Shown here: positions 2,955 to 59,377 of the stretch, piece after piece
Position numbering within the stretch: the stretch's first letter is position 1
Layout of the letters: each line of letters starts with the position of its first letter
NCBI GenBank assembly: GCA_024679065.1
Contig: JAGIQG010000014.1
Coordinates: 7,440,001-7,504,000, forward strand
DNA: 64,000 nucleotides
Direction: 5' to 3'
Source: Sphyrna mokarran
Lineage: Eukaryota
The notes under the pieces: model-generated
What the model saw: only the letters and a program-made list of their open reading frames with translations
Told to the model about the DNA's origin: nothing
Databases searched by the model: none
Program-made: the position numbers and the translations under genes

Positions 2955-3024
2955 ATGGAATGGCCGTTAATTCTACAGATCAAGGATATTTACTATCCCG
3001 TGCTCGTCGCCATTGGTACACCAG
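2955..3024 (+). CDS. GPR139/GPR142-like class A GPCR, gene 1, coding exon 1 (MEWPLILQIKDIYYPVLVAIGTP + G)
   Basis: Not in the ORF track in this frame. ATG at 2955 gives 23 codons homologous to exon 1 of the other three genes (YYPVL.AIG motif), with the same 70-nt length. It ends CCAG|GCAAGT, a GC donor. Confidence 0.85.
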
Positions 3025-3639
3025 GCAAGTCTGTATACCCTGCTGCTGAATAGGTGCTGAATATGTCATTGTTAATGGTTCTGTATTGAAGAGAGAATGT
3101 GCTTGCGGAGTCATTTTATTTCTAGTGAGTTAGCATAGTGAACATTAACGCAATTCGGAGCCCACACAGCCTCTGAGATGTTCTGCTGCTCGGCAGAATG
3201 AGGAACCTTGACTTTGCTGCCTGTAATAAAATGAATGAAATCCCCACCACTCTAGTAGTATAATAAATCACAAAGGAATGTGTTTTGATTTATTATTTCA
3301 AGGTATTGGAGCGGCGTTGACATGACAAGGATTCGTTACCCACTCTCAATTGATGAGTAGATGATGACGATCTTTGTATTTACCCATTGATTTCTTTGAC
3401 CTCTGATTACAGCCCCTTAATAATTATTCATAGAATAATTACGGTTCTGAGGCTTTGATTTTTTTTGACACACATTTTGTTTGTTCCCATGCCAATTCCG
3501 GTTCCACTAGTTCACTTTCAGCTCACGCTCTTCTCCCGCTTCTCCCTCTCGTACATTATAAAGGGAAAGAGAGAGGTGTTTCAAATGATATTCAATTACC
3601 TAAAGTGAAGGTTTTATTTGAATGGATATAGAACAACCA

Positions 3640-4420
3640 CCAAGGAACAGAGAAAGGTACAGCGTAGCAACGGGCCCGTCAGTCCTCCAAGCCTATGCTG
3701 ATCAAGCATATGCACTGAATCATTCCGTTCACATTATCTTCATGTATTAGTCTCGTAGCCCCTTAAATGCTCCTCCCATCACATCCCTGGCCAGCGCGTC
3801 CCAGACATTCAATACACTCGCTGTAAAAAAAAAATGCTTCATTCATCTCCTCTGAAAATTTCCACGTACATGTGAAACCCAAATCCCCGAGTTTCTTTGC
3901 CCCAGAAAAGAGGTTCGGACTCTCCATTCTGTCCATGCCACTCATAATCATGTAAACTTCTAACATGTCACCCCTCAACCTTCATCTTTCCACTGAGAAC
4001 AAACTGTTTATCAAATCTCTCCTCACAGCTAATGCCCTTCAGGCCAGACATCATCCTCGTAAACCTCTTCTGTACCGCCTCTAAAGCATCCACATCCTTC
4101 CGGTAGTGTGGCGACCAGAATTGTAGACAATGTTCTAAATGACGTCTAACTATTGTTCTGTATAGCTGCAGCATGACATGGGTATTCATTTAATGAACGA
4201 CGCGATCAATGAAGGCAAACATGTCATATGCCTTTTTGAGTATTCACCTGTACTGCAGTTTAGTGATGGACTTATATCCCAGGTCTCTCTGCATGTCAAT
4301 ACTCAAAGAACAAAGAACTCGTAAGGGTTCTACCATTTAAAGTATAATCCTAACATGCATTGGATTTTCCAAAATACATCATCTCACGCTTGTCCGGATT
4401 AAACTTACATTTCCAGTTAC
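3640..4420 (-). mobile_element. CR1 LINE 3' fragment
   Basis: Minus ORFs LQLYRTIVRRHLEHCLQFWSPHYRKDVDALEAVQKRFTRM and RGDMLEVYMIM, plus a 3' tail (ggtacagc...gggcccgtcagtcc). Confidence 0.9.
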
Positions 4421-4664
4421 TATGTGAGAATTTTGTTGAATGCTATGTCTCCCTATTTTTGCCGCTGGTTTTCAAATAGATTAAGCGAATTACACGTAAA
4501 ATTGTATAATTTGTTCCATTCATCTCCTGTGGCTACATCGAAACATGGCTCCCTGGATCATACTGTACATGTTTCAGGAGGGATGTTCTTCCCACCCGGC
4601 ACAGCATAGACATGTATGTATTCAGACTCCTTCTTTAAACTCGTCATGAGACCTATGTTCTAGA

Positions 4665-6035
4665 TTCCTGAACATGTATACTGTACAGCACAGTACAGGC
4701 CCTTCAGCCCTTGATGTTGTGCTGAGCTATGTCCAATCCCAAGATCAAGCTATTCCATTCCTTATCATTCTGGTGTGTTCCACGTGCCTATCCAATAACC
4801 GTTTGAAATTAACTAAAATGTCCAACTCCACTATCACAGCAGGCAGTGCATTCCACATCCCAACCATTCTCTGAGTAAAGAATCTACCTCGCTCATCCCT
4901 CCTATATTTCCCACTATGAAACCTACAGTAATGCCCCCTATTAACAGTTACATCCATCCGAGGAAGTAGTCTCTGCACGTCCACTCCTCATCATCATCTT
5001 ATAAACATCTATTAAGTTGCCTCTCATTCTCCGCAGCTCTAAAAAGAAAAGCACCAGGTCCCTCAACCTTTCCTCATAAGACCTATATCCAAACCAGTAG
5101 CATCCTGGGAAATCTTTTCTGCACTCTCTGCAATGCTTGCATATGCTTCTTATAGTGAGGTCACCAGAACTGCACACAATATTCCAAATGTGGTCTCACC
5201 AATGTCCTGTATAGTTGCAGCACAACCCCACAACTCTTAAACTCAAACCAGCTGTTAATAAACGTTAACACATTATAAGCTTCTTCTTGGTTCTATCCAC
5301 TTGAGTGACAACTTTCAGAGATCTATGAATATGAAGACCAACATTTCTTTGTTCTTCCGCATTCCTCAGAACACTGCCATTGACCGTGGAATCTATATTC
5401 AAGTTTGTCCAACAAAATGAATCACCTGGCACTTACCAGGTTAAATTTCTTGTGCCACTTTTCGGCCTAGATCTGCACCCTATCAATGTATCTTTGCAGC
5501 CTACAAGAGCCTTCCAGCTCATCCACTACTCCACCAATCTTGGTGCTGTCAGCAAATTTACTAACCCACCCTTAAGCCCCCTCTTCTAAGTCATTGATAA
5601 AAATCACTAATAATAAGGACCCAGCACTGACCCCATCATACACCGCTGGTAACTGGCCTTCAACCAGAAAATTTTCCCTCCATCACCACCATCTGTCTTC
5701 TACGATAGAACCAGTTACTTTCCAACAAGCCAAATTTTCTTCTATCCCACACCTCCTTGCTTTCTTCTCGAGCCTACCATGGAAAACTTTATCAAACACC
5801 TTACTAAAATCTATGAATACAACATCGACTGTCCTACTTCATCTAGAGACTTAATTATCTCCTCAAAGATTTCAATCAAATTTGCGAAGCAGGGCTTACC
5901 CCTCACAAAACTGTGATGACTGTTCCAGACTAAGCTGCATCTTTCCAAATGGTCATAAATCATATCCCTCAGGATTTGTTGCATTAACTTACCGAACCAT
6001 CGAAGTAAGACTAACTGGACTATAATTACCAATAT
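4665..6035 (-). mobile_element. CR1 LINE 3' ~1.4 kb (RT and 3' UTR)
   Basis: SHHSFVRGKPCFANLIEIFEE, RMRGNLIDVYKMM and FFTQRMVGMWNALP motifs. Tail cagcacagtacaggcccttcagccc. Confidence 0.92.
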
Positions 6036-8384: not shown

Positions 8385-9316
8385 TGAACCTTCTAACAAT
8401 AGTGACCCTCTGCAGAGGAAATTGCCACCTTTCGAAAAGTATCTTTATCTATATGGTGGCTATGGCATCTGTAGATCTACTGGCTACACTCGTCTATAGA
8501 ATTGCGCATCAAATTTTTCAGCAACGCTTTCCATATTCATTTTTCTCCTACACTGTCATTTGTAAGCTTATGTTGTACTTGACTTGTACCAGCGTTAGTA
8601 TGTCCGTATGGTTTACAGTTGGATTCACATTTGACCGGTTTGTAGCTATATGTGGTCTGAAACTGAAAACCAGGTATTGCACAGTGAAAACTGCATCTAT
8701 CGTCATTTTTATTGTTTCTGTGTTAATGTTTTTAGAGAACATTCCATTTTGGTTTGCATTTGAACATAAAGAAATAATTGATAATGTTCGCTGGGGTTTC
8801 ATTCCTCGTTTGGCTTTTTTTAGATCACCAGCAGGTGGCGCATACTTCAGATTACAAAGTATTTTAATTTCCTTGATCCCCTTTGCTTTAATATTGCTGC
8901 TTAATTGTTTAACAGTTAGACGCATTGTAATGACAAATATTGCACGCAAGAGACTCCGTGCTCCCAGATCTGGGAATCAGCGTGATCCAGAGATGGAAAA
9001 CCGAAGGAAATCCATTATTTTGCTGTTCGCTGTGTCCGCCAATTTTATATTGCTCAGTCTGACATCAGTGGTGAGTCAGTGGACTGACGCCCTGGTCATA
9101 AATATCAGACCTGTCTATACAGATCCTGCTTATATTGCTAATGAAACAGGATATATGCTAACCCAGTTGAAATCTTGTACAAATACATGCATTTATGCAG
9201 CGACACAAACGAAGTTCAGGGAGGAAATGATTCACGTGGTGAAATCTCCTTGGATATTTATTTCTTCATTCATTAAAAATATGAAAAACCAAACCAAAGC
9301 TATCAGCCCCAGTTAG
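8385..9316 (+). CDS. GPR139/GPR142-like class A GPCR, gene 1, coding exon 2 (spliced protein 333 aa)
   Basis: Acceptor ctcgctttcttacag|TG AAC (G+TG = Val, then TM1 Asn). 7TM motifs: MASVDLL, SVWFTVGFTFDRFVAIC, IPFALILLLN, DPEMENRRKSIILLF, SCTNTCIYA. Stop at 9314-9316. Confidence 0.92.
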
Positions 9317-16480: not shown

Positions 16481-19400
16481 TATACTATTGTCGTAATTTT
16501 AGGAGGGACCTTAATGGAGATTGAGGGAATCGCTGTCAAGACTGCACTGCAGTAAGAAAAATATAGGCATGATTTGCGAGATCAGAGAACGTTGCAAAGA
16601 TGGCCAGTATTATTGGGAGATAAGCAGTACACAAACAGAAAGAATTTAAGGGGTTGATTGAGGTGACATGTATAGGAAAATATGTAATGGTTGATTGCGT
16701 GAAAAATAACACAAAGTGTAGGGAGACAGCTATTTTTCGAGGTAGGCAAAATCGTAAGGAATGCAATAGGTTACCGAGTTTGAGAGTAATGTTCGGACTG
16801 AAGAAGATGCTAATATAGGTCAGGTATTCGCTGCTGATGTCGAAAAAAATAGAGAACGTGGTCATGTCCAGAAGTCCTTCCATCAAGTACTTATGACATG
16901 GAAGACCTTATAAGAAGTTCAGTTAAGTAAAAGTTAAGGGTAAATGGATCCTCTGCCATTTCCATCCTCAGAGCATTCAATTTCACCTGAAACCCACGTT
17001 TAGAGTTAATAAAATCGACATCTAGTTATGGTCTCTCTTGGGAGGCCAGTAGACGTAGAGCAGGAGAGAAGTGGTTGCTATCAGGTTGGGGAAATGAAAG
17101 TTGCAGAGATTCAATATTACAGAATCAGGATAGGAAGATGCAAAGGACAAGCTCATCAATCCCGAATGAACATGCTTCCCAGCAGCTACTGCCACCTTTG
17201 CTTCAGAAACCATGATTTGCTTCGGCCCTATGTTAATGACACGAACCTTTGGATCAGATACTGGCATATAAAAGAGCAGTGTCTATATTCGTCACTGCAT
17301 TCCTCGTCCTTCTTCCTAGATTCACTGATTCGTTCATCCACTATGGCTTCAGCATCGAAATCTGTAAGCAACGCCATTTTAATACCAAGTTTGGTTTTTA
17401 TTCCATCCGTTGGACGCTTGGTGAATGCACACTGAAAGCAAATCATATTTGTTTAAATATATTTCTTCCCTGCACACACTGCATAGCAATGTAAACTGCT
17501 TAATAACCCTTCCCTGACTGAGTGCAATTTCAGCAACATTCAAGGAGTTCTACACAATCCAACGTAAAGGAGCTGCTTGTTAAACACTCGCCTACTGTCT
17601 TATACCTTCGCTCTCTTGACCATCGATACACATTACCTACAATGTGGATAGTATATTATGGATTCATTACATTGAACCTCCTTGAAAAACATTTTCAAAA
17701 CCCCCGAAATGGATCAAATAAAATGAGAACATTAAGTTAATCTGAAAACCTGCGCGTTCACCTCCAAGCCACACGTTATCCTGACCTGAAGGTATGCCAC
17801 CGTTGCATCACGGTTGCCTGGTAGAATTCCTACAACTCCTTCCCTAGTATCTCCAACAGTGTTTGTGAAACTCACGGACAGCATAGATTCAAAAAGGCAG
17901 AATACCACCAACTTCTCAAGGATGGATTATTTAAATGTTCACGTAAACAGTGCTGCCCACATCCCTCGATCAAACATTCAATACTTCGGCATTGTGGGCT
18001 TCAGTCATTGCAATGCATTACAGGAAAGATGGGCTAAATGACACGTTGTTAATTTGTGTGATCGATGAACTATAGTGATGATTATGGATAGTGGTGCTCA
18101 AGGGGAAGTTAACACAAATTCTGCCTTTTTAGGAAAATATTGTAAACATCATGCTTGGAGGGCTGAAAGTAAAGTTGCAGCAAGCTGCAAACAATGACTG
18201 GTGGAATTCCTTTGGATCAGCGGACTAGATGCATTGAAAACATTTCTGTGTATATCAGGCATGTTGTGCTGAAAGGCACACTGAGAAATGGGATCAAATG
18301 GATTGAAGGTAACAGCATTTCGTTATCCACTCAAACTTAAGGAACACCCAAGCAGTTGTAATAGGTGAGTCAAAGTTATCAGGATGGATTTAATGTTTAG
18401 AGGGACTGATAGAAGACAGTGGGTAGATGGGCTCGATTAACGGAATGAAATGGATCGGAATTTATTAATGAACATTTATTACTAGCTGGACGGCATTGGC
18501 TAGTTATATCTGCTGAACAGAATGAAATTTGTTGCCGGGGAGATGAACTGAACAGAATATTGTGGATAGGTGCTAGGATACAATAAATGAAGGCGATGTT
18601 GTCGTTAAGTGACATGGCTGAGTGAAGAGAGAAGCTTGGCAAGATTGTATGCACCGTACTGTTCACTATTACTATTATTGTAATATTAATGTACTATTAG
18701 CTGTCGGGAATATTGTGGCTGAATGGTACGAATGGGTGAATGAGTACCTTAAATAGGTGAAAACGACAGACTGACTTTATTTCTGATCAAGTGATATGCC
18801 ATGCTGAAGGGAATATTTGAACAGATGATACAGCAGTTTGAAGGCAACACAGTGGATCTAGATGGAAGAGTGATGTTCACCTGACTGAAACAGCACTGGA
18901 GCTCTGTCATCAGTTGCGATACAATCACTCTCTTAAATGTTGTCCCAGGGCAAACTGTGGCCAAACTAATTTTGCGAAGCCTGGATGTTGACTTGCTCAC
19001 ACTGTAATTTTGAAACCTTTCACCAACATTAATGAGTTATAATCATTTTCAGAAAAGCAGAAATCAGTTTCCGTACTATTCGTGTCAAAGTTCTTCTGTT
19101 AAGTTGTGTAGCGTGGTGTGCACGGATCTCCTACCTAAAGGCGGCATGACAAGTGATCGCTGCTATTCTCAGTTAAAATCGAAATGGTGAAATATTCGTG
19201 CTCTTCCTGAAGCCCATCAGGCAGCTGATCTGGGGGGAAGGAGTCCGAGCGCTGAAGAATTCCACTGTGGTGGGGCAGCATTTATTGTTTCTTCTTGAAT
19301 TGTTGCATCTACTGAAATCCTAATGTCCCAAATATGGTGTAAAAAATATTTCAAGAGATTTGTCCTGAATAGTACAGCAATTATGAAAGATCGTCATATC

Positions 19401-19796
19401 AAAATGATGTTAGTATGAGGTTCAAAATTATTTCAAAAGCCCAAACTATAAATGAAATGCTAAATGTTCAAATATCAATGCAGAATGTTGCTTTATTGAA
19501 TAGGTTCTTAATCCTGTTTCTATTCACTCAATGGTACACCTCTCGCAATAGTTTTGTTGCTACCAACACATTTATTTTATTTGTTTAAATAATTGTGAAA
19601 GAGCATCATTATCGTTAACTTCGTTTTTTCTCTCTAGGCTCTTTCTTAAATCACTGTAACAAATCCTTTTAAATTATGCAATTTAAGAGTTATGCACCTC
19701 TCAACGGGGCGATCTATTTCATTTTACTGTTGGCTCATTCGAACACGCATTGATATTTAATCAGTTGGAGGCACCATTATCCTTACCTCACAGATA

Positions 19797-19866
19797 ATGA
19801 AATACTCAGTGATATATCAAATAGAATGCATCTATTATCCTGTTCTCGCAGCTATTGGCATTATTG
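19797..19866 (+). pseudogene. GPR139-like GPCR gene 2, coding exon 1 (MKYSVIYQIECIYYPVLAAIGII + G)
   Basis: 70-nt exon ending ATTG|GTAAGG. Paralogous to 35848-35917. The exon itself is intact, but exon 2 is frameshifted. Confidence 0.85.
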
Positions 19867-20419
19867 GTAAGGCTTTGAATCCAGTTGCAATGTTGTTAAC
19901 TAATGTTGATTTCTTATTTACGCTTGGTCCCTACCTTGTGCTTCAACAGTTTTCTGTTTTTTCTCTGAGTGATAAAGATGTCATTGCGTGCTACCGTTTA
20001 AACCAAGAGTAATTTTACTGCTGGCTTTAGGAGGATTATTTACAAGGCTTTTATTTTCTTCAGTGTTCAACAGAGTCATTTTTTTAAGAACCTTCCGCTT
20101 CATTGATTCTTATCCATTTTCATCTAAAGAGCAAATCTGAGGATCAGTATCTAAATATCTGTGGATCATTTAATTCCCCCGCCATATGGGCAGATTTTAC
20201 GACCATTATTGCGAATGCAAATAAATGGCAGGTATTGTTTGCAATGGAAAACTGACACGTGATTACTCATTGTTGTGCATTTTTTTTTGATTATTCTCTC
20301 CTCACCATTTAACACCACAGTAAATATGTACCGTTTTTTCTTAAATAGAGGAAAGACTAGTCTATAGTAAATTGCATAAATAAGAGTGCTCAAGTGTATA
20401 TAGAATTGCAGATTCATAT

Positions 20420-20731
20420 AATCTCTACAGTACAGAAGGAGGACATTCAGCCCATTGAAGCTGCACCGACGGCAATCCAACCTAGGCCCGATTCCTGTAA
20501 CCTGACATATTTAATATGTTAATTCTGTGACACTAGAATCATTTTAACACGGCTAATCAAATTGTTTCTCATTCTTTGGTCTGCGGGAGGAAACTCGGGC
20601 ACCCGGAGGAAACCCACGCTAACACGGAAAGAATGTGCAAAATCTACACAGGCATTACCAGAGGCTCGATTTAATACCGGGTCCCTGGCGCTGTGAGGCA
20701 GAAGTATGAACCATAGTGCCACCATATTCCC
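20420..20731 (-). mobile_element. V-SINE (HE1-like) in the gene 2 intron
   Basis: Head ...ctgcctcacagcgccagggacccggt..., V core and tail. Orthologous copy at ~36480-36783. Confidence 0.88.
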
Positions 20732-21760
20732 CATACAGTGTATATGTTATGCGTTAACAGCAGAAAAAATCAGTGGGGATTGTACAACATGTCATAGTAT
20801 ATATACATTCAAGATAACAACTAATCCCCACAAGTCAACTAAAAGGAAAGGTCAGCTGCAATGCACTTTGAAAACATTCTTCACATTTCAACACTGGAGA
20901 ACGCATAATTGACAACACGTCTCTTATTTTGAACACGATTGATAGTTTCGCTGAATTATTGCTTGAATTTCGTTCATTTGTCAAGTATTTCATGATGCAA
21001 GCTTTATTATTAAATGAGTCAACTCTACCTCAGCTGGTCACAATACCGTCTCTGTGTCAAAATTTTATATACTTAAACCTGACTACAGATTTCGGTCACA
21101 GAAATAAGGATCCACGCAATATTGCAGTGTGGAGGCAGGTTACACAAAATTTCGATTTCGACAAGTTCAGCCCCTTCTACTTCGTCAATTGTGCTTTTAC
21201 ATCGTATCCCAATATTTCATAGAAATAAACAGCGTTATCCTGGATGCTGGGGCCGAAATAGACATCCAATTAATATTAGAAGATATACATTGCCTTGACA
21301 TTTTAATATTGATGTTTGCAAGAGCTTGTTCTATACAACTCAGCTGATGCATTTCCTAACATAAAGTAGTGACAATGCTCCATTGGTAATGAAAAATTTT
21401 GTCAATTTTTGTCGTCGTGAAAATGTTTATTTAATTAAAAATGATCAGGTTTCTATGTTCCCAAAATTCATCAGCTTTAATTAATAGTTGGTACTACCAG
21501 GTGGGATATAGAAGATAAACTGGGTTCGCAAAGAGCAATTATTGTTATGGTTAGATCTGAATTGAATAAAGCAAGTTGAAAAAAATCATTTTCCTATTTG
21601 ATGTCGAGACATGCGCACCACAGCCAAGCTGATAATTAATGCGTGTTATTATCGTTGTTTAATTGTCTCAGTAAATGAGATGAATCAACTGCTTTGTTGT
21701 TGTTTATTCTTTGTTCTTTAATTGAATCCATTACTATACAAGTTCAATGCTAATTAAGAG

Positions 21761-22110
21761 TCGGCACGCTGGCACAGTGTTTAACAGGGTTGCGTTGCAG
21801 TTGCAGAGATCTACGTCCGATTCCCGGCTTGCATCACTGTCTGTATGAAATTTGCACGTTGTGTCTGCGTAGGTTTCCACCCACAGTCCGGAGATGTGCG
21901 GGTTAGGTTAATTGGCCACGCTAAATTATCCTTTCGTGTCTCTTAGAGTGCAAGTTAGAGGGTTTAGTAGTGTAAAGATGTGGAGTTATGGGAATAAGGC
22001 TGGGCGGCAGGGGCGGGGGCAGCGGTGGTGGAGGGGAGAAGGAAGGGGGGGTCTGTTGGTGGTGCAGGCTCGATGGGCCGAATGGCTTCCTTCTGCATTG
22101 TAGAGGTCCT
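21761..22110 (+). mobile_element. V-SINE (HE1-like) in the gene 2 intron
   Basis: ggcacgctggcacagtg...tttgcacgtt...gttaggttaattggccacgctaaatt...gatgggccgaatggcttccttctgc. Orthologous copy at ~37866-38215. Confidence 0.85.
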
Positions 22111-23556
22111 ATAATTCACCCAGAATAGATTACCTCCTCTTTTTTGAAAGAAGACTCGTGAATCTATCGTGCAAAAATTAGGCACCAGAGTACGTTGCCT
22201 TTTTAAATGATAGCAGTTGTTGATTTCATGAAATCATGAAGAAGAGAATGAAATAAATCGTCGGATCGACATTAAAAATAGTTCCACGCGCCTGTTTTTT
22301 TTCTTGTAGATTCAATTCGCTTTAAGAAAGTTACAACAGAATCTGTTTCGTTCCCCAATCATACAAGTGTTTGATATCATGGCAAAGTGCTATGTAAATT
22401 GAAACATACATGTTTGATCTTTGCCGTTCTTAAATATCTGTCTGTTCTCATCAAACAACGTCATTTGGTTACTGACCCTCGAACCAGCCAAATTAAGTAT
22501 CGAAGGATGTTTGATTTTAGTGAGTTATTCCCACTTTTCGCTTTTCCGTCCGTCATAAAGCAGCGCCGATATTTCCCGGCACGCGAAGAAATAATGTCCT
22601 CAGGTCCTGATGAGGCTCCAATGCCCCTCATCTTCACCCTTTCCTTGAATTCTTAAGCAATTTCCGGAATGCCAAAGTGTCCTCCAGCTCACATCTAACC
22701 ATTATTTAGAAAAATTCCCTGACACATTCTTGTGTTTCTCCTCTGTCTCCATTTAACAAAGTCGAGGTGCATTGTTTAGCATATTCTTAACTCGAGTTCC
22801 CATATTCAGAAATGTGTGTAAGTATATCATAGTACATTCTCAGTCTGTTTCACAATTGTACCATAAATTGGTATAGTTTCTCAGAATGTATTTTCCAAGT
22901 TGAATCAGTACATTTTGCGTTTTGAGATTCATGTGCCCTGCTTTTCCAAGTTTTCTCTCTCAGTTTGTGTCTCCTGTGTCTTTTGCCACATTCCTCGAGC
23001 CTAGTTAATTGGTTTCCCGCCTGTGTATGTCTAAGTCCAATTCATTTGTTTCTCCCAACACATTCTGATATCTTGGGTGACATATTGTTTTGCACTCATG
23101 CAGTTAAAAAGCTCAGAATTTATTGCTATTGCAAAGTATCATCAGTTTCCATTCTGAGAGCAGGGATTAGTTTTGCTGACAAATCAACTGTGAGAGTATC
23201 ATAAGCTCTCACAGTCCAAATTCCAAATTACCTTCTGCATTATAAATAATCAAACCGTGTCATCTTATAATAATGCTAAACATAAACAAATCTAATTCCA
23301 ATGTACATTTTATTCTCCCGGTTAAATAACAATTCACTGATACTTGAAGAGGTAGGTTAATAGGTTAATGCAGTATTGATGGTGGTGGTGGGGGGTGGGG
23401 AACAGAGGAAGGATTTGAGATATAAGGGAAGGTTGGAGATAATAAATGACTAAAGAAATCAAGGCAAAGAAGAGGCTTCAGCTTTTTAAACATCTCAATA
23501 AGATCCATCTTATTATCTACTTACTCATTTCCCTGTCTTTCATCAATAACATTGCC

Positions 23557-23735
23557 CTACTTTTTGGTAGCACAGTGGTACATTGATTGGAACTGCTGCC
23601 TCACAACACCTGGGAACCGGCTTCGGTTCCCGATCTGGTCACTGTCTGTGTATAGATTGGACGTTCTCCTCGAGTCTGTGTGGTTTTCATCCGAGTTCGA
23701 AAGTCTCCTCCTCCAGTCGGAAAGACGTTGTAAAT
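23557..23735 (+). mobile_element. V-SINE fragment
   Basis: ggtagcacagtgg...actgctgcctcacaacacctgggaaccggcttcggttcc plus the V core. Confidence 0.75.
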
Positions 23736-38215: not shown

Positions 38216-39759
38216 ATCCTATAAATCACCCAGAATAGATTACCTCCTCTTTTTTGAAAGAAAACTCGTGAATCTATCGTGCAAAATTAGACAGCAGAGT
38301 ACGTTGCCTTTTTAAGTGACTGCAGTTGTTGATTTCATGAAACCTTAAAGAAGAGAATGAAATAAATCGTCGAATAAACATGAAACACAGTTCTATGCGC
38401 CTGGTTTATCTTGTCACCTGAACGTTTTTCTTTTTTTAAGTGGAGAATCAATTCGCTTTCAGAGAGTCACGACCTAATCTGCTCTGTTCCCCATATCATG
38501 CAAGTGTTTGATACCATGGCAGAATGCTATATAAATTGAAATAGACATTTTTGATCTTCGTCATTCTTTAATATGTCTGTTCTCATCAAACAACGTCATT
38601 TGGTTACTGACACTCGAACCAGCCAAATTAAATATCGAAAAATGTTGTGATTTTAATGAGTTATTCCCAGTTTTCACTGTTCCGTCCGCCATGAAGCAGC
38701 ACCGTATTTCCCGGCACGCGAAAAAATAATGTCCACAGGTCATGATGAAGCTCCAATGCCCCTCATATTCACCCTTTGTTTGAATTCTTAAGCAATTTCC
38801 GGAATGCGAAAGTGTCCTCCAGCTCACATATAACCATTATTTAGAAGGGTTCCCTGACACATTCTTGTGTTTCTTCTCGGTCTCCATTTAAGGAAATCTA
38901 TTGTTTAGTATATTCTTGACTCGAGCTCCCATATTCAGAAATGTGTGTAAATATATCATAGTGCATCCTCAGTCTGTTTCACAATTGTATCAAAAATTAG
39001 TATAGTTTCTCAGAATGTATTTTCCAAGTTGAATCAGTATAATTTGCATATTGAGATTCATGTGCCCTGCTTTTCTAAGTTTTCTCTCTCAATTTGTGTC
39101 TCCTGTTTCTTTTGCCACATTCCTCCAGCCTAGTTAATTGGTTTCCCGCCTGTGTATATCTAAGTCAACTCATTTGTTTCTCCCAACACGTTCTGACATT
39201 TTGGGTGACATATTGTTGTGCATCCTTGCAGTTAAAAAGCTCAGAATTTACTGCTATTGCAAATTATCATCAGTTTCCATTCTGACAGCAGGAGTTAGTT
39301 TTGCTGACAAATCAACTGTGAGAGTATCATAAGCTCTCACAGTCCAAATTCCAAATTACCTTCTGCATTATAAATAATCAAACCCTATCATCTAATAATA
39401 ATGCTGAACATAAACAAATCTAATTCCAATGTATATTATATTCCCCTTGATAAGTAATAATCCTCTACACTTGAAGATGAAGTTTAATAGGTTAATGCAG
39501 TATTGAGTGGGGCGGTGGGAGAGGGGGTTGTGGGGTGGTGGGGTGCGGGGGACAAAGGAACGATTTGCTATATAACGGATGGTTGAAGATAATAAATGAC
39601 TAAACGAGATTGTGAATCAAGGCCCATAAGAGTCTTCTGCTATTTAAACATCTCAATAAGACCCATCTTACTATCTACTTACTCACTTACCTGTCTTTCA
39701 TCAATACCATTGTCCTACTTTTGGTAGCACGGTGGTACATTGATTGGAACTGCTGCCTC

Positions 39760-40625
39760 AAACATCCATTTCAATTGCATTTTTGAAGTTTTCTGATGAT
39801 ACCACTGTAGTGGTGGAATCTCAATCAATGAGGTCACACAGGATACCAAAAAGATAGAGATTCTGCTCAAATGGTGCAATGAAATAAATCTTTCCTCAAA
39901 TGTTAGTAAATCGAAGGAGATAACCATTGACTTCAAGAAAAACAGTGGAGGATTTGCATCTGATAACATCAATGGTAATGAAGTGGAGATGATCGAGAAC
40001 TTCACGTTTCCAGGTGTCCAGATTACCAACAATCTGTCTTGGCCCCTACAAGACAATGTTCTAGATAAAGCCCATCAATGCCTCTAATTTCTCACAAGGC
40101 AAAGGAAATTTGGCCTGCCTGTTAAGACACTTTTGAATATTTACAGTCACCATAGAAAACATTCTCCCTTGATGTCATTTGGTTATAACAGTTTATATGG
40201 TTGCTGCTCTGATCAAGACCACAAGGAACAACAAAGTTGGGAGCAAAGCCCAGTCGAACAGGCAACCCAGTCTCCCATCCATTAACTCCGTTTATTCATT
40301 CTACTTCCACTGGAAAGCAGTCAGCATAATCGAGGACCCCAGGCATCACAGGAATTCTGCCTTCCACATTGTTCATTCAGGAAAATAAGATACACACATC
40401 TGAAAACATGTACCAACTGACTGAAGAATAATCTCTTTAGAGATTAAATGGCCCTTTAATACATTCAATTGATCTTTCCTTCACTGCATGTGCAACTGAA
40501 AAACTATATTCCGCACCCTAACGTTTTAATTTGCTCTAACGGCCTAATGGACGGTATATCCTGTCTGTAAAATGCACAAGAAACAGTTTTCAATCTATCC
40601 CAATGCCTGTGACAATAAATCAAAT
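39760..40625 (+). mobile_element. Rex1/Babar-like LINE 3' fragment (duplicated copy)
   Basis: KFSDDTTVV and KSKEITIDF motifs. Confidence 0.75.
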
Positions 40626-40771
40626 CAGATCATCATATTCTTCTGTAGAAACAATCAATTTGCTGCAATGAATGCCATTTTCATTTTTACATTGAATCTT
40701 ATGCAAATGATGAAATATTTACCTGTGAATTTGCCTACTAAATTATTGATGTTTAATTCTATTCGTTACAG

Positions 40772-41709
40772 TTAACACAGTGGCAATTGTGATCCTGAAA
40801 CGAGGAAAATGTGGTCTCTCCAAATGCATCACACAGTACCTAATGGCAATGACAGCAGCAGATCTACTACTAGTCATCACCGATGTTATATTGAATCGAC
40901 TTAATAATATGTATTTCCCTGTCAGTTTCTTATCTATTACTCCAGTGTGTGCGCTGAAAGCAGCTTTATTTCTTTCAGCTATGAATTGTTCCGTTTGGTT
41001 CACAGTGGTTTTTACCTTTGACCGATTTGTAGCCATTTCTTGCCAGACACTGAAACAAAAATATTGCACCAAGAGAACTGCGGTTGTGGTTGTCATAACA
41101 GTGACCATTTTCAGCTGTGTGAGGTGCATTCCCTGGTACCTTGTCTTTAGACCTTCAGTAATTATTGACAATGTACCATGGTATTGTATTGAGAAAGATC
41201 TCTATTATACCTCAACATTTTATATAGTGTATGAACGAATTTACATTATACTAACACCATTGATTCCATTTGCCCTGATTTTGGCTTTCAACAATTTGAC
41301 TGCTAGGAATATTATAATTGCCACTAAGCTGCGAAATATCCTTAGGGGACAACGTAAATCGGAGAATTATATTGACCCAGAAATGGAGAGTCGAAGGAAG
41401 TCTATTATATTGTTCTTTGCTTTGTCTGCCAATTTTATCTTATTGTGGATTCCATATATCGTGCACTTGTTAACCTGGAAAACTCTAAACTATAATTACA
41501 CAGACAAAGGCTTTACCAATCCTGTATATGTCGTTCAGCAATGTGCATACATGATGCAGCTTCTGAGTTCATGCACCAACACCTGCATTTATGCACTAAC
41601 CCAGAGGAAATTCAGAGAGGAGTTAAAGAACGGGGTTAAATATCCATTCATTCTCATTTCAAAAGTATTTGAACAACAATGTAAAACAGAACTGCAAAAG
41701 AGGTTCTAA
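40772..41709 (+). CDS. GPR139/GPR142-like class A GPCR, gene 3, coding exon 2 (spliced protein 335 aa)
   Basis: Acceptor attcgttacag|TT AAC ACA GTG. Intact ORF with AMTAADLL, SVWFTVVFTFDRFVAIS, PWYC, LLWIPY, SCTNTCIYA and helix 8 KFREELK. Confidence 0.93.
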
Positions 41710-42049
41710 CATGATAGGTCACTCTGCATTCAAAATATAACACGACTATCACTTTTCTATTATTGCGATAAAATGTATTCTATTATCCTTGTAACAATGG
41801 TAGATTTTCTTTTCATTCACATCTTGCAAAGTCTTGCAGTCTTAACACTCATTAACACTGCACCCGCTTGAAATGACACTTCTCCATTTTCTCGCTCAGC
41901 GAGATTTCAATAGTCAGACCATTCCTACGTATAATTAGATGGCGAGAGCATATATGCTGGAAACATCTCATCGGTCCCTGCAGTTACGAATTCAGCCAAG
42001 GGTCATGGCGGCATATTGGTTAGCTCTGTTGATTCAGAGCAGCAGGGCG

Positions 42050-42540
42050 TATGGAGGAAAAATGATTATGGTGTTATATTCTAAGGGTTAAGCGTTAACG
42101 ATTAAGGATGTGCTGGTACATGCAGAAAACTTATGAGACTAGCAAACCCCCAAGGTCCCCAGCTCAGATAACGGTGAAGCGGGCATCTGGCCTTAGAAGA
42201 GATATGAAGCCTGACATACAATTCTATCAAGTGTAAACACAATGACTCACTAAAGAGATAACAGGACGAAGCTAGACCAAGGACACACTACATAAAAAGG
42301 TCTCGGACACATGTAATTGAATTATTGGACAAAGGTTAAAGAATGAAATGTATTGTAGTAATTACGAAAACTTGTTTATTTCACTGCATAAATATAGCGC
42401 GGGTTTGCTCGAAAACTTGGAGTTCTGCCCCGGTGGTGACCGAGCTGAGCTCTTCGTGATATCACGAAAAATAAACTCTCCTGAAGCTATACTCTGAACG
42501 TCTCCGCCTGAGTTATTCTGAGTTAGGGATTTCCTCGACA
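42050..42540 (+). mobile_element. Solo LTR (491 bp) inserted into a V-SINE
   Basis: GGGCG direct repeat at 42045-42049 and 42541-42545. Termini TATGGAGGAAA...TTTCCTCGACA form a 9/11 inverted repeat of TG..CA type. TATA-like cataaata at ~42387, AATAAA at 42470-42475. Absent from copy A. Confidence 0.85.
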
Positions 42541-45500
42541 GGGCGCCAGATTCGATTGCGGCTTTGGGCCCTCGCCTGTCTGTTTGTGTCTGCATGGGTT
42601 TCCTTCGGGTTCTCAGGTTTCATCTGACAGTAACAAAGATGTGCACGGCAGGTGCATTGACCATGCTAAACTGCACCTGAGTATTCATCTGCAGGTTAGC
42701 TGAATTAGTCATAGTAAATGCCCCGGGTTATGGTGATAGTGCATGGAGATGAGCTTGAATGTGATGCTTTTTCGAGAGACAGTACATACTTGATGGGTAA
42801 AATGATATCCAAATGTGGAATGATTCTCTATTTGGAGACCTTCTCTTTCTTAGCTGCACCGAGGGGACATCAACATACTTCGTGGAACAGATATATTGCT
42901 TGATCCCCGATTTATATTTGCATCACCTTTCTCAACGCGACCTGTCTTTGGATTGTCGAGTTATTTGTTTGATATTGAATACTGCATCATATGCAATTTA
43001 TTCGAGTGCAACATTTAACTGAAAATACTTTCAAAATCGCTGCTAACTCACTTTTCTTGCCGCGGATTCCATATTTTCTATGGTGACTGTCTCATGTTGC
43101 AAATGATTGTTTATAATTTTGCAACTAGGATGCAAGCCCGTTGACATCACGTGCTTCCTTGTCAGCCCATGTGTGGCTTGGTATCCCATCCCCTCGTTGT
43201 CTTCAACAACTTTTGTGTTTATTACACAAAATGTTGCAGGCTACTCCTGTCCGGCAGTATGTACAGTATGTTGATGTTCCTTCCAGTGCAGCTAATTAGC
43301 CTAGGCCATTGACTCAGGCCCGTTAACCATTGTTGCGGCCGCGTTCAGTGCGGTCCAACCTACACTTGGTTCACTCTTTACGTATACGATTTCCTTTAAA
43401 GTTCTTTGGTAAATCTCACGGTTGTAAACCAGTTTTATGTTTATATTTCATATTGACAATATTTTCCTTTGGCTTTGGCTTCGATGTAACATGAATTTAT
43501 AAAGGTTAGGAAATTTTGGGATGTCTATTTTCCACTTTGAAAATTCTCTTGTAACGTCTGAAAATAAAAAGAAAATACTGTGGATGCTGAAAATCTAAAA
43601 TTAGTATAAAAATGTTGTAAACGATCACGTAGCATCCGTGCAGAATAAGGCAGATTTAACATTTGGGTTCCCATAGAACACTTCTGCAGCACAAAAAAAG
43701 AGGGATAAAAGTATTGCATTGTGTAGTGTGCAGAGGGATGGAGCAGCTGGAGAAAACTAAAAGATCAACAATTAGTGAGAGTGAAGGGAGCTTATAAGTA
43801 TAAAAAAGGCAAAGGTTAAAGTTGTATTGACGGAAACAGCGAGGGCTATGGAATTTGCAAATCGTAGCACAAACGTCTGACAACAGAATGTGTACATTGC
43901 TCAGTGAAGCAAAATCTTAAGAAGTCTGACACACGGCCAAGAAGGGGATGTTCACAAATATCCACGATAGAAGGAAAACACCGCTTTATTAAGTTGTTGA
44001 AACTCAGTGTTGAGTGCAGTTATTTGGAGATGGGATCCCACTCACTCAGTTTGTGCTGGGTTTCACTGAAACAGTCCAATAGGTCAAAGATGGACATCTG
44101 AGCATGAGCATAGGATGCTGAGTTGAATTTATAAGCAGCAGAAAAAGTAGGATCACAGTTGCTTGCTTAGCGATCGTATTCCATGAAGACTTCACCCAGC
44201 CTATTTTTTTGCCTCCATCGTATAGAGATGAACACATTGGGAGCAGTGACTACTGTAGGCAAAACTGCTGGAGGTGGAAATGAAATGGTTTTTCCATTGT
44301 AATTAGTGGTTGCTTTTTGGTCGATTAAAAAAGAGGTATTATAGAATCAAAGGCTGTATCTTCGGTAACGGCAGGGCAAGATTAACCTGGGAAAATTTTG
44401 TGTGCTGAGTGATGGAGAAAGAATTATGACTGAAGGAATCGCCCCTGCAGAATAATTTCATAGACTGATGGAAGGTGTGAGGGAAATGCATGTTTAGCGC
44501 TGGCATCTCTGTGGAGTTGGGGGGAGAGTGGAGAATAACTTCTGAATGCGAAGGCTAGTAGGTCGAAATGTGAAGAAAATAAGAGACACTATCATCATTC
44601 TTGTCGGGCAACATGTGATATAGATTGCACTCTGGGGCAGAAAGATATGTGCACGTGTTCTTCTTTCAATAGTTACAATATTTTAACTCTTGTCGGCAGA
44701 AGCCTGGAGGAAGGAAATGGTTCAATAAATCCATCAGTCATTGGGATTTTTTGGATCGAAAAATCATTTTACAATGCCATGCATGACGTGACCTCTCGAT
44801 ATCTATCACGGAGGTCTTAGATGAGAGTACATAGGAGACTCTGGACAAAACGAATTGGATGATGAGTTTAATATAAATATTAGTGCCACAGTTTTAATCC
44901 ATGTATGGTTGACATAACGCTTTTCAATTAATTGTAGAGCACAGTCGGGAATTTTGATTCCGTGGCCAACTACCTTTACAAGGACTAACCTTTTTTCAGA
45001 AAATGCAAACTTTTCAGACGTAAAATGACTCTGTATAAAAATGTAAATTAAACTTATTTATAAAAAAATGAAGACGTTGAAGAATTAAAATTGACATACA
45101 AAAAGATGGAACTTAAAATACAAAAAACAGAACAATATCTTTGACTGAAGAGAAATCACAGCTATGCCAGTCAACACAATATTAGCATAAGGCTTTCTAA
45201 AAAGATTGTGTTTTCATGCCAACATGTAAGTTAATTATGCTCTATTGTTTTCAATAGTCCAATCCATTCATTTATTATTCAATATGCCAATCTACTCCCG
45301 ACAGTTTTTTATTAAATCAAATAAAATCTTCCACATTCAATAATGTTATTTCATTGGCTCTTTCTGATAAACGGAAGTCCGCTTTGGCATAAATCACTTT
45401 CTTGTTGCAATGGTATCCAAGAAAATATATTTTACTTAAGTCATTAAGCAAAATTTGGTCTAATGCCAAATGGGGATCCAGCACTCGACACATTCCAGGC

Positions 45501-47193
45501 CTGAGAGGCTTAAATCATACAAAATGTATCTTGAGATTTTTTTTTCACACCGGTATATTTTGAATATGTTTGTTTGCATCCATTCTTTTCTTAATGCAAG
45601 TTAAACCATTGTATATCAAAACGTCGAACCCTGTATTCTTCATTAAAGTTACTGATATCTTTAGTGAAAGTAAAGATAAACTGCATGTGTTTGCCTTAGA
45701 ATCTTAATTAATACAATTCAATTTTAAATAAATCGGCTTGTTTCAAAATCGTTCATTTATATCAAACATACACCTCATTGTTCAATTTTCTTTCAAATCC
45801 TTGCACATATAATCAACTGTTAATAACTTTCATGCAGGGTAGGATTAATTCTAAATTTCTCTTTATTTTATCTGATAGTTGCTAATGTTTATTATCCCCT
45901 TCCACAGTTTCAACCAATATATGGCTGACACAGTTTTTTTTTAAATTATTTCTGGTATAAGATACGATGGCCGATTACATCCCATGTTGTCTTTGTGTTC
46001 CAAAGGCACATCCCTCAGCAGGGTCCATTTGGAATTACTGGAATTGACAATCGCCAACAATGGATGCACACAGGTCAAAATTATTATGCACATGCTTAAC
46101 GTACCTTCATTTACATGGATCCGCTATCTGATGTACATTTGCGACCAGTTCAAACAGCTCTCAAGAGCCAAGTTAAATCAGGAAAACGAAGCGGGGTGGA
46201 GGTCACATTCTTTTGGACCAGGTTCAACAGCTCGTGCGTCCGCCTCATCAAGTCTGCATAAGGTACTATGCAGGCATTCACAACCTCATCTGGGCACATT
46301 ACTTACTGTATAAACATAAAAACTGAGTCTGAGTTTGCATCATGAAGCATTTTCTCACCTTTGCTCCTCCGTTGCAGAGTTTTGTTTTTGTACAACGTTC
46401 CCCTCCCACAATCCAATCGTTTGAAATCTGTCATATTCACAGTCATTTCTGAGGGGAAAAAAAAACATTGTTAGAACCGTTCACCCCTCTTGTCTCCACA
46501 GAATTTCCCAGGTCTGCCGAGCATTTCCAACATCATGACAATGTTGAGTTCATTCTCTATTTTAAAGCATAGTATATTGTCATGAGTTTCAAGGTTAAAT
46601 TAATTAAATTGGATTGTGGTACACAGCTTTCCAAAATGAGATGGATCAGGGGGCCACGTTCGGAATTGTGTTTTTTTTTATTATAGTTCAGAATTTCCCT
46701 TACTACTGGGAGGGAAGAAGTAAAGATGATCAATGATTCATCCAGGGGAAATGTTGTGTGTTCAGTACTAACTATTTGCAGCAAAGCTACATTTGTTCAG
46801 CTGTGTGAGTAGGTAGTTAAGGTGTTGTACGTGAGTGTTGCACATGTGATTCGGTGTGAGCGTTCAAACATTGTTCGAAGCCTCCATGATTGAAATGATT
46901 CTCTTCTTTCTTCAGCTCCCTACCTTAAAATTCATTAATTAATCTACTGTTCCAATGCTTAGGGGAAAGAAAATAAAATGCCAAAAAAGTTGGTTACTGG
47001 CTGTTTGTTAGAAACACGCTAACTTTTTAACAGAAGATTTAAAATGAAACTCAGAAAACGCGTTGTAATATGTTATGCTATCAACGCTATACGCTTTAAC
47101 CTCCGGAACGGATGAAGACACAAAGTCGACTTTAAAAATTTAAACGCAATTGCCTCCAATCGGCAATTTAAACAAAAGTAAATATTTGCATTG

Positions 47194-48715: not shown

Positions 48716-48719
48716 TCCT

Positions 48720-54675: not shown

Positions 54676-55607
54676 CTACTGCCTGAACAGGAAGACAAGC
54701 CTTAATTTTACACTTTTTTGCAACATCACAATTATTGTCCAAGGAGATTTCACGATCTTCTTCAGCTCTTCCCTGAATTTAGCTTGTGTAGCTGCATAAA
54801 TGCACGTATTTGTGCATGAACTTAAATGAATGAGCAGTGTTCCGGTTTCAGCGGCGATATATGCAGCAGATGTGTAATCCCGCCGGATAAAAACAAGCAT
54901 CCGACTGGCTAGATAACTAATGACTCTTGTCGCCCACAACAATAAAAAGCTACTAGAAATAGTGAACAACAAAATAATGGATTTCCTTCTGTTCCGTATC
55001 TCTAGATCATTCTGATTCTCACTGTTTTGACCCCGGAGGCCCGCACGGGCTTTGCTGGACAACAAAATCCTTCTGACTGTCAAAAAATTACATAGTAATA
55101 TCAAAATGAAGGGAATCCAATTCAATAAGATACTTTGTAACAAGACAACCGCATCACCAATTTGAGAAGTATAAAAATCCTGGCTAGGGACGACACCCCA
55201 CTGAACACCATTTATTGTGCTTTTATGTTCAAATGCAAACCAAATGTACAAGTTCTGTAAATAGATAAGGACTGAGGATGTTGTTAAAACTGCAGTCGCT
55301 ATTCTCGCTGTGCAATAGATTGTTTTAAACTTCTGACTACATATAGCAATATATCGATCAAACGTGAATGAGACTGTAAACCATACTGACATGTATAGGT
55401 TATTACAAAGCATATATATCATTAATTTGCAAACAACAGTGTAGAAGAGGAATGAATTTGGAAAACGTCTTCCCAGAACGTTGTACAGAATTACATTGAT
55501 GAGCATCACCAACAAATCTGCTATTGCCATGGCCAACATATAGATCGAGACACATCTGGAAAGGCCGCAATTTCCTTTGGCGAGGATCACGATGGTCACG
55601 AAATTCG
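54676..55607 (-). CDS. GPR139/GPR142-like class A GPCR, gene 4, coding exon 2 (spliced protein 333 aa)
   Basis: Minus-strand acceptor ...tttttacag|CG AAT TTC GTG (G+CG = Ala, then Asn). Intact ORF with AMAIADLL, SVWFTVSFTFDRYIAIC, LLWATR, SCTNTCIYA. Confidence 0.93.
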
Positions 55608-57260: not shown

Positions 57261-57859
57261 CAACCAAACAAATTATTGATTTCTATATAGTAATTCCCTG
57301 TGCTGTAGCTCTGACAACCAAATCCATCCACCACGATGCTTGTGTCAAGTGATGCACCAACAAATTGCATAGCGAACGTCGCGGCACGGCGGGGCAATCG
57401 AATTGAATTTAGTGTCTTAAGTTTACTTGAAGAAGGGGTATCTCATGAGCTGCATCCAATATCAGGGGTGCTTAACGTCATACTCGCACATTACGGAAAT
57501 AAGTCTTTCAAATAAATCAGTGAGTTGAGAAAAAAAAGATTGAAATTAATTCGAGACGGTGGGATTCTATTGTTTATCTTGGGGCGCAGAAAGGGAAATA
57601 GCGGATCGGGAAAACTAATTTGCAGCTCTGAGAAGACAAGCAGCCTCCTGAGCAGGGATTATTCTTTGAAATGTTATCCAATGATTTTCGCTTTCTGGAG
57701 AGGCCGCATTTCGCGGTATTAACATTTTTAAGGGTTAACAATACAGATTCTCACTGCAAATAAATCGCATACAGATCTATGAACTGTTGGAAAGAAAGAG
57801 AATCAGCCTCGATCTCCGTAAATGAGAGAATGGAAGTTAAACTCCCGGTGTCACAATCT

Positions 57860-59139
57860 TCTGAGCTGAGTTAGGCAAATTGGGATTTTTTTCCTTAGAA
57901 AGACATAGACTTCGAGGAGATCTAATGGAGGTGTAGAAGATTATGAGGAGTATAGATAGAGTAAACAGGGTTTCGCTTTTTACTAGGATGGACTCGAATA
58001 ACACGAGGAGTCACGGGTTTCGGGTGAGGGGGGTAAGGTATAATTTGGATGCTAGAGGGAGTTTTTTCACACAGAGGGTGGTGGGGTATATGGGATTTAA
58101 TGGGATTGGGAGTTACAGATAGTTCTATGGCCTGGTAGGTATGGATATGATCGGTGCAACTTGTGGGTCGAAGGCCCTATTTGTGCTGTAGTGTTCTATG
58201 TTCTATACCTTCTCCAAAGCATTCACATCCTCCTGGTAGTGTGGTGACCAGAATTGTACACAATATTCTACACGAGACAGCATGACTTGCCGATTTTTAT
58301 GCTCAGTGCCCCGACTGATGAAGCTGAGCATGCTGTATGTTTTCTTGACTGCCTTCCCCACCTGCGTTACCACTGTCAGTGATCTGTGGACATGGATATG
58401 TCATTCGGACGTTAGGATGGCGGCGTGGGCTCGTTGGGCCGAAGGGCCTGTTTCCCGTGCTGTGTTGTTCTTTGTTTTTTGTTTGTTCTTTGTTCTTTGG
58501 GTATGGAATGCACTGCCAAGTAGAGTGGTGGAGGCAGGTACTATGGCGTTATTTAAGAAATCTTAGATGGGCACATGAATGGGAATGGAGGGGTATAGAA
58601 AACTGATTTAAAATAGGGATCATGAGGCTTGGGAGTCCCTGGGAAGTTTGTAAATAGGTGATGATATTGATGTACTTGTTTTTATTCTACAGGTGCTTTG
58701 GTACACCTTGTTGGCTAACAAGGGGCATACACGCGATGGGTCGTGAGAGGATTTTTTTTCGAGTTTCCTAGTGCTTCACGACGTTAGTGTACGCTTGACC
58801 TGGACCATTTGATGGGCAACATGACAGCTCAGTGACTATCGCTGCGCTGTGCAGATACATCGATTTGGGCCTGTGTCTGTGGGAGTTTGCACATTCTGCC
58901 CGTGCTTGCGTGGGTTTTCTCCGGGCGCTCTGGTTTCCTCCCACATCCCAAAGTTGTGCTCTTAGGCTAATTGGCAAAACAAATTTTCCCTAAATTGTCT
59001 CAAGCTTGGTTTTTAATCCATAGATCTATAAACATAGACAGGGATCACGGGTAGAGGTGGGAACATCGGGGTGACGGCGCGGGCTCGTTGGGCCGAAGGG
59101 CCTGTTTCCCGTGCTGTTTTGTTCTTTGTTCTTTGTTCT
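57860..59139 (+). mobile_element. CR1 LINE with a V-SINE-derived 3' UTR and (TTCTTTG)n tail, interrupted by a chimeric insert at 58096-58499
   Basis: Homologous to the reverse complement of 12547-13430. RGDLMEV..IMR and FFTQRVVG | VWNALPSRVVEAG motifs. Confidence 0.9.
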
Positions 59140-59307
59140 TGAACAGCGGCTCATGGGTCATGCGAACCGTTGAGACTCCCACTGATATTCAACAATTTAT
59201 CTCGGCAGAGAAAAGACATTGCAATAATGACCTTCTCGCATTCAGTTGCTGAATTAGTGAACGGTGAGAACTCCGCAACCAAAAGGCAAAATCGTGCATT
59301 GACTTAC

Positions 59308-59377
59308 CGGGAGCACCAAAAGCTGCCAGCACAGGATAGAAAAGCTCCTTGATCTCTGTAATTAATGGGCGGGCCAT
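59308..59377 (-). CDS. GPR139-like GPCR gene 4, coding exon 1 (MARPLITEIKELFYPVLAAFGAP + G)
   Basis: 70-nt exon ending CCCG|GTAAGT on the minus strand. Same length and phase as the other three. Confidence 0.9.

Follow-up and report, generated by a model that had tools for sequence, protein, structure and literature searches.

GPR139 is an orphan receptor of the brain with habenular expression; it is encoded by a single-copy gene and couples to Gq/11, and with GPR142 and the protostome RFamide/Wamide receptors it forms a clade of class A G-protein-coupled receptors (GPCRs) from which, we assume, the srw-type chemoreceptors also derive. Here we analyse a 64,000-nucleotide stretch of the Sphyrna mokarran genome (contig JAGIQG010000014.1, positions 7,440,001 to 7,504,000 of the forward strand; hereafter the window, with positions counted from its first letter) that carries a cluster of four receptor genes related to this clade. 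The protostome members (MIP, proctolin, FMRFamide and myosuppressin receptors) are sister to GPR139/142 (PMC8557429). GPR139 is activated by Trp and Phe, and the characterised ligands of the clade are aromatic amino acids and peptides (PMC8557429, PMC12208981). Its gene has two exons, and the human and zebrafish orthologs are 70% identical (PMC7318219). The GPR139 pocket is built from Phe3x33, His5x43, Trp6x48, Arg6x51 and Asn7x38, and the receptor has been studied with calcium assays (PMC5430874). Peptide receptors are the nearest relatives of the srw-type chemoreceptors of nematodes and Aplysia, which make up 29 of 90 Aplysia chemosensory-like genes (PMC3963977). Two further groups with unknown ligands, 'NMOGPR' and 'Orphan 139-like', are tabulated beside GPR139 and GPR142 (PMC5207463, Table 1).

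Four receptor genes that differ from GPR139

A six-frame scan of the window returned four rhodopsin-type exons, which belong to four two-exon class A GPCR genes spanning positions 2955-59377. Genes 1, 3 and 4 are intact and gene 2 is frameshifted. The second exons of the three intact genes match Pfam 7tm_1 with E-values of 2e-15 to 7e-17 and score 425-469 bits against a profile of the family, indicating that these are receptor genes and not chance reading frames. Four paralogs in this interval had been proposed in an earlier note made from the DNA letters alone, and the scan and the Pfam matches confirm them; the family profile detected no fifth copy in the window.

The database names of the family, the two-exon structure and the best solved-structure match of the family profile (GPR139, 79.6 bits, E-value 1.9e-21; the next receptor scored 57 bits) would all suit duplicated true GPR139 genes that still sense Trp and Phe. 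We rejected this explanation, which is scarcely credible because the sequence contradicts it in both overall identity and pocket. Approximately 70 of 281 residues are identical between gene 3 and human GPR139 (about 25%, counted by eye from the alignment), compared with 70% between the human and zebrafish orthologs, and four of the five key pocket residues of GPR139 are changed in gene 3. At these five positions, in the order given above, gene 3 has L/Y/W/Y/Y, gene 1 C/Q/S/S/Y and gene 4 C/Q/W/R/T. Among 187 family members Trp6.48 is generally kept (181 of 187), whereas Phe3x33, His5x43, Arg6x51 and Asn7x38 are not; Asn7.39 occurs in four of the 187. Cys3.25, absent from the aligned GPR139 chain, is present in 181. 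The family does resemble GPR139 and GPR142 in its two-exon gene, in having no proline at 7.50 and in a similar S-x-W-x-T-V stretch of transmembrane helix 3 (TM3) before the DR motif. With an identity of about 25% and a different pocket, the window genes are no orthologs of GPR139.

The window family resembles the OR, TAAR, V1R/ORA, V2R and T2R repertoires in the way it behaves in the genome, with gene clusters, gains and losses of copies and a variable pocket, but it has a coding intron in TM1 and other motifs. Identity with the canonical OR, V1R, V2R or T2R families was also rejected: at E-values up to 0.001 the three intact second exons gave no match to the Pfam models of these families and matched only 7tm_1, apart from a weak srw match of gene 4 that fell below the cut-off. 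Clusters bearing srw occur among the Atlas look-alikes. Unlike the RFamide/Wamide and srw receptors, the window family appears to be an independent vertebrate radiation.

A large radiation in cartilaginous fishes

Searches with the gene 3 and gene 4 proteins gave 2219 matches among 3266 candidates and 868 matches among 2537 candidates, respectively. The entries are clusters at 90% identity. The best 120 of each list were used, with one protein common to both, and the sequences analysed are thus the top matches to the window genes, not whole repertoires. Among the 239 distinct best matches, all 237 named proteins are chondrichthyan, from 22 species. The listed matches include at least 55 clusters in Heptranchias, at least 55 in Heterodontus, at least 39 in Pristiophorus, at least 12 in Rhinoraja and at least 10 in the small-spotted catshark; these counts come from partial lists and are lower bounds in that respect, although a single gene with alternative models may account for more than one cluster. 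Set beside the four genes of the window and the single copy of GPR139, they far exceed the handful of copies genome-wide that the earlier note had weighed against an expansion. Eighteen listed Heterodontus proteins of both subtypes (A and B, below) appear to share one contig, and the listed Heterodontus members occupy 11 contigs over 20 Mb. Both subtypes also appear on one contig in Stegostoma.

An exhaustive library of 50%-identity clusters gave 490 matches, many of them short fragments, with 112 at E-values up to 1e-30; the next match, at 33% identity, is a coelacanth protein. The restriction to chondrichthyans rests on the named proteins, and a non-chondrichthyan member is possible among the 112 library matches. 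A large chondrichthyan radiation comprising sharks, rays and chimaeras, and filed in databases as GPR139, is well supported by these searches. With many copies per genome, about 25% identity to GPR139 and a different pocket, it agrees with the lineage-expanded family, distinct from true GPR139, that had been suggested from the window alone.

A first tree was built from 230 sequences: 184 of the 237 named chondrichthyan proteins (those of 285-345 residues), 34 named members of two conserved lineages, X and Y, described below, 8 unnamed proteins and the 4 window genes. This tree and a second, 67-sequence likelihood tree were rooted on two unnamed distant proteins; GPR139 and GPR142 are in neither, and the distant match P0383 and two Logan matches were left out. 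The 230-sequence tree assigns genes 2 and 3 to subtype A and genes 1 and 4 to subtype B, with X and Y outside. The same two pairs had been recognized in the earlier note, and protein identity is 53.7% between genes 1 and 4, 84.5% between genes 2 and 3, and 40-45% between the subtypes. Each subtype holds sharks and rays with many species-specific groups, and white shark proteins are the closest named relatives of gene 1 and of genes 2 and 3. Support for subtype B is low in this tree (0.48). In the 67-sequence tree, support by the Shimodaira-Hasegawa-like approximate likelihood ratio test (SH-aLRT) is 91.4 for the core of the radiation and 88.7 when its most divergent unnamed member is included; named B has 94.5, lineage X 99 and lineage Y 100. 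A chimaera protein is nested in A at 99.9. The position of this chimaera protein indicates that the A/B split is older than the divergence of chimaeras and elasmobranchs. Old subtypes and species-specific bursts, together with the young duplicate and the broken copy in the window, fit the birth-and-death turnover previously proposed. Nor do the trees, on the lineages they hold, place the window genes in an already characterised family, an outcome that the earlier note had named as evidence against its reading.

The earliest-branching relatives are P0339, P0310, P0297, P0286 and P0291. P0339, a 339-residue receptor, branches before the whole shark radiation in both trees, and the species it comes from could reveal the origin of that radiation.

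Two conserved relatives outside the radiation

Lineages X and Y were found with a profile of four distant matches, which recovered 166 proteins among 8000 candidates scored; the best 120 were used. They are two conserved GPR139-like groups, likewise named GPR139 in databases. Among the matches listed, X contains coelacanth, ray-finned fishes, amphibians, a lizard, a snake, a turtle and three sharks, and Y contains bichir, sturgeon, bowfin, teleosts and basking shark; no mammal or bird was present among the approximately 90 matches listed with a species name. Both lineages are apparently low in copy number, as judged from the matches listed and not from genome counts. Their clades exclude the window genes and hold shark members of their own, and they are, on the sequences compared, the closest named outside relatives of the window genes, with identities of about 30% (X) and 24% (Y).

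Like the window family, X and Y have a short N-terminus ending in [YF]YP, Cys3.25 with a cysteine in extracellular loop 2 (ECL2), and a similar G-protein face; the N-terminal motif and the two cysteines are found in genes 2 and 3 and in most family members. The N-terminus of about 12 residues without a glycosylation site, remarked on in the earlier note, is indeed present in the window genes, with 12 residues ahead of [YF]YP and no N-glycosylation sequon among them. We rejected it as a special mark of the expansion, since X and Y have it too. X and Y also occur in bony vertebrates, and the short unglycosylated N-terminus and several of the motifs are an inheritance from these lineages.

X and Y differ from the window family in forming separate clades, in their apparently low copy number and in a conserved pocket with Arg6.51. 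All 23 X proteins and 10 of 11 Y proteins (33 of 34) have this arginine, compared with 2 of 91 in subtype A and 1 of 96 in subtype B (3 of 187). The X proteins P0346, P0411, P0465 and P0485 and the Y proteins P0406, P0414 and P0472 keep both Arg6.51 and an aromatic residue at 3.33, as GPR139 does. One shark model is named after TMEM183A, which hints at a gene neighbouring X. X and Y may correspond to the tabulated 'NMOGPR' and 'Orphan 139-like' groups.

Pocket variability and the conserved G-protein face

We compared 28 pocket and 22 G-protein-side positions, drawn from a generic list for class A receptors and numbered from gene 3. In pairs matched in divergence, with an overall identity of 58-68%, about 62% (1839 of 4095 pairs in A, 2462 of 4560 in B, 138 of 253 in X and 18 of 55 in Y), pocket identity was 0.57 in A, 0.47 in B, 0.81 in X and 0.63 in Y, the last from only 18 pairs, and identity of the G-protein face was 0.90, 0.84, 0.91 and 0.86, respectively. 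As pairs are not independent, parsimony changes on the tree were counted as well. Scaled to the mean of the TM positions, the number of changes per pocket site was 1.27 in A, 1.62 in B, 0.69 in X and 0.89 in Y, and the G-protein face gave 0.26-0.54. Measured against other positions in the outer half of the TM helices, the pocket changes faster in B (p = 0.023) and slower in X (p = 0.0008), with no difference in A or Y.

These results indicate that the pocket constraint seen in X was lifted in the radiation while the signalling face was kept, which points to diversification or release and not to positive selection. Strong purifying selection on the pocket, which the earlier note had named together with broad non-sensory expression as evidence against its reading, is not what we found. 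A variable pocket over a conserved G-protein face fits a repertoire with many ligands and one output.

The same receptors could instead serve endogenous signals (neuropeptides, or reproductive or osmoregulatory metabolites), having diversified with their ligands or in tissue-specific expression. GPR139 and the RFamide/Wamide receptors of protostomes, the members of the clade that have been characterised, recognise peptides or amino acids. In addition, the structure model of gene 3 exon 2, a confident seven-helix bundle (mean predicted local distance difference test score 89.5), has generic peptide receptors as its top structural matches, 50 listed matches being tied at Z-scores of 24.5-25.6 with GPR139 not among them, in a comparison that does not tell them apart. 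The unusual residues of gene 1 are also retained in its white shark relative, which is 82% identical. Endogenous ligands are harder to reconcile with paralogs that number dozens per genome, bursts confined to single species and a hypervariable pocket, in contrast to the conserved lineage X, and we know of no matching expanded ligand family; we regard this explanation as unlikely.

Structure of the gene cluster

The coding exons and the duplicated blocks are listed in Table 1. Introns measure 5360, 6033, 4854 and 3700 nt in genes 1 to 4. In all four genes exon 1 comprises 23 codons and one base, giving a phase 1 intron in TM1, as had been reported, within the codon before Asn1.50. The earlier note had also described the first exons as identical; the common length of 70 nt holds for all four, but pairwise they share 37-60 of 70 bases, so that length and phase are equal and sequence is not. 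The description as a tandem array likewise needs adjustment: the genes are clustered, but with gene 4 on the minus strand the array is not purely head-to-tail. Among the motifs said to be shared, the TM3 motif and D[PL]E...RRKSII are present in all four genes. RG.C.LSK is found in three, gene 4 differing at both ends, with the first R replaced by K and the last K by R, and the TM7 motif that replaces NPxxY is found in the three intact genes, the copy in gene 2 being altered and out of frame.

Table 1. Positions of coding exons and of the segmental duplication in the window.
Feature	Positions	Strand	Remarks
Gene 1 (subtype B), coding exon 1	2955..3024	+	70 nt, GC splice donor
Gene 1, coding exon 2	8385..9316	+	intact; predicted protein of 333 residues; Ser at 6.48, no ECL2 Cys
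Gene 2 (subtype A), coding exon 1	19797..19866	+	70 nt, GT donor
Gene 2, coding exon 2	25900..26835	+	three one-base deletions; stop at 26600 leaves 256 residues without TM6-7; probable pseudogene
Gene 3 (subtype A), coding exon 1	35848..35917	+	70 nt, GT donor
Gene 3, coding exon 2	40772..41709	+	intact; predicted protein of 335 residues
Gene 4 (subtype B), coding exon 2	54676..55607	-	intact; predicted protein of 333 residues; no ECL2 Cys
Gene 4, coding exon 1	59308..59377	-	70 nt, GT donor
Segmental duplication, first copy (carries gene 2)	17291..30871	+	
Segmental duplication, second copy (carries gene 3)	33335..47059	+	

Of the two cysteines that form the usual class A disulfide, genes 1 and 4 retain Cys3.25 but not the one in ECL2. 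The ECL2 cysteine is missing from 10 of 96 subtype B proteins, genes 1 and 4 included, mostly within one branch. Its absence and the replacement of Trp6.48 by Ser in gene 1 both recur in the 82%-identical white shark relative, and on these grounds we rejected them as signs of decay. The database model of the white shark relative of gene 1 (P0226, 287 residues) begins at an internal Met and lacks exon 1, and genes with a GC donor like that of gene 1 (donor site 3025-3030) may for this reason be frequently mis-annotated.

The recent duplication claimed in the earlier note is borne out by the two blocks carrying genes 2 and 3, which are 75-88% identical. The disabled copy it described is gene 2, which is broken as sequenced by one-base deletions near 26543, 26606 and 26706 (codons 238, 260 and 293). 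Two of the three deletions sit in single-base runs, so that sequencing or consensus error is possible, and read in the frame of gene 3 the gene contains no stop. Over 331 aligned codons, genes 2 and 3 have a synonymous divergence (dS) of 0.227 and a non-synonymous divergence (dN) of 0.093, with dN/dS of 0.41 overall, 0.91 in the extracellular loops (73 codons) and 0.35 in the remainder outside loops and pocket. When amino-acid changes were polarised with five outgroups, gene 2 received 16 and gene 3 received 9, with 12 ambiguous. A real and fairly recent pseudogene fits these data. The indels between genes 2 and 3 all lie within the last 98 codons (26540-26835), where dS is higher (0.30 versus 0.20); gene conversion of the 5' part or a local sequence error could account for this clustering.

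With one of the four window genes broken inside a young duplication, retroelement remnants flanking the genes and many library matches that are short fragments, the expansion might be largely neutral: segmental duplication in a genome rich in repeats would have produced it, and the majority of copies would be redundant or in decay. Paralogs, however, keep 84-90% of the G-protein face, and dN/dS between genes 2 and 3 is 0.41; moreover, both subtypes persist in sharks and rays and the chimaera protein nests in A. We therefore consider a largely neutral origin very unlikely.

Other features of the window were also recorded. Pyrimidine-rich stretches at 19780-19796 (gene 2) and 35831-35847 (gene 3) end in CAG three bases 5' of the ATG and may be splice acceptors of an upstream non-coding exon. 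TATA-like boxes, recorded without a chance control, lie at about 2872 (+) and 59454 (-), 83 nt (gene 1) and 77 nt (gene 4) upstream of the start codons. No 8-mer was common to the 400 nt upstream of genes 1, 3 and 4 in a scan without shuffle control. Related retroelement remnants, in direct and inverted orientation, occupy 10124-13497, with a reverse transcriptase match at 11151-11663, and 57870-59137, inside the intron of gene 4. Short broken frames at 62450-63900 (-) resemble an RTE-type long interspersed nuclear element, and the one frame scanned there had no Pfam match. There was no Rfam match in the window and no Pfam match for its 12 other long open reading frames.

Expression data and the literature

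Mammalian MRGPR and formyl-peptide receptors provide the model for a further explanation, in which the repertoire would act as immune or barrier sensors of microbial or damage-derived peptides in leukocytes, mast-like cells or somatosensory neurons. Clustering, turnover, a variable pocket and a conserved signalling face would suit such sensors equally well, and the extracellular-loop dN/dS of 0.91 between genes 2 and 3, compared with 0.35 elsewhere, is in keeping with them. So too are two skate genes, LOC129709592 and LOC129716095, in rare spinal or dorsal root ganglion (DRG) nuclei, although their names do not allow assignment to the family. In the supplement of a skate preprint, a gene named GPR139 was recorded in 1.4% of nuclei of spinal-cord cluster 28 ('a few scattered cells'), and a second in 1.5% of one DRG cluster, with an adjusted p of 1 ('little or no expression') (PMC13621994).

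Searches by name in supplements of PMC13188829, PMC10115646, PMC11372145, PMC12286861 and PMC11806052 gave no match; these took in a shark and bony-fish immune-cell atlas, 12 of the 19 files of a thymus study and, for one other supplement, a single 4 kb file. Such negatives count against immune sensors but carry little weight, as the tables may hold locus numbers only. On this evidence we consider an immune or barrier role somewhat unlikely. No description of the chondrichthyan expansion was found in the open-licence literature under the names tried. The GPR139-like expansion seems to be undescribed, while expanded GPCR repertoires and GPR139-like orphans as such are already known.

Discussion

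Our preferred explanation, in which we place about as much belief as doubt, is that the window carries part of a large, old, chondrichthyan-specific class A GPCR repertoire that detects outside or luminal chemicals. This repertoire would have grown by local duplication from the GPR139-like branch of the GPR139/142 clade. As the N-terminus is too short for a binding domain, the ligand is predicted to be a small molecule inside the helical bundle, probably a different one for each paralog. A single G protein would serve all paralogs, most likely Gq/11 with calcium, by analogy with GPR139, and cells of the nose, mouth, gill, skin or gut might in this way sense amino-acid derivatives, amines or short peptides. 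Cartilaginous fishes are poor in OR, TAAR and ORA genes, and the catshark repertoires comprise 2 ORs and 6 OR-like genes, 3 ORA, 3 TAAR, 2 TARL and 32 V2R genes (PMC11979771). We infer the label 'chemosensory', and favour a sensory role, from genomic behaviour typical of sensory repertoires, from these small canonical repertoires and from the precedent of the srw and Aplysia receptors derived from peptide receptors.

Several observations weigh against this explanation. The pocket positions come from a generic list, and top matches stand in for whole repertoires. Within the outer half of the TM helices, the pocket of subtype A does not change faster than the remaining positions (1.27 versus 1.49, permutation p = 0.92), and the entropy test lost its significance when A was reduced to a subsample of 23 sequences (p = 0.10); the variable extracellular faces suggested in the earlier note hold as pocket variation above a conserved G-protein face that is clear in B, with the pocket of A unconstrained but not set apart from its surroundings. 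Between genes 2 and 3 the pocket dN/dS is 0.23 (27 codons), which gives no sign of positive selection. The skate entries named GPR139 are the sole expression data found, and they provide no evidence of expression in a sensory organ. Finally, the catshark paper regards V2Rs as the main olfactory family (PMC11979771).

A bolder form of the chemosensory explanation is possible but doubtful: the family might be an unrecognised group of vertebrate chemoreceptors that serves cartilaginous fishes as their principal class A repertoire for odorants or the common chemical sense, outnumbers their V2Rs, is expressed one or a few per nose, taste or skin cell and was built independently from the GPR139/RFamide-Wamide branch. 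If true, this would go some way to account for the good sense of smell of sharks despite their small number of canonical olfactory receptors.

A class A family with at least 39-55 members in several species, hidden under the borrowed database name GPR139, alters the list of receptors for one of the two lineages of jawed vertebrates. It points to two little-studied conserved relatives, X and Y, that are apparently absent from mammals among the matches listed, and it offers a natural series of pocket variants beside GPR139, a human drug target.

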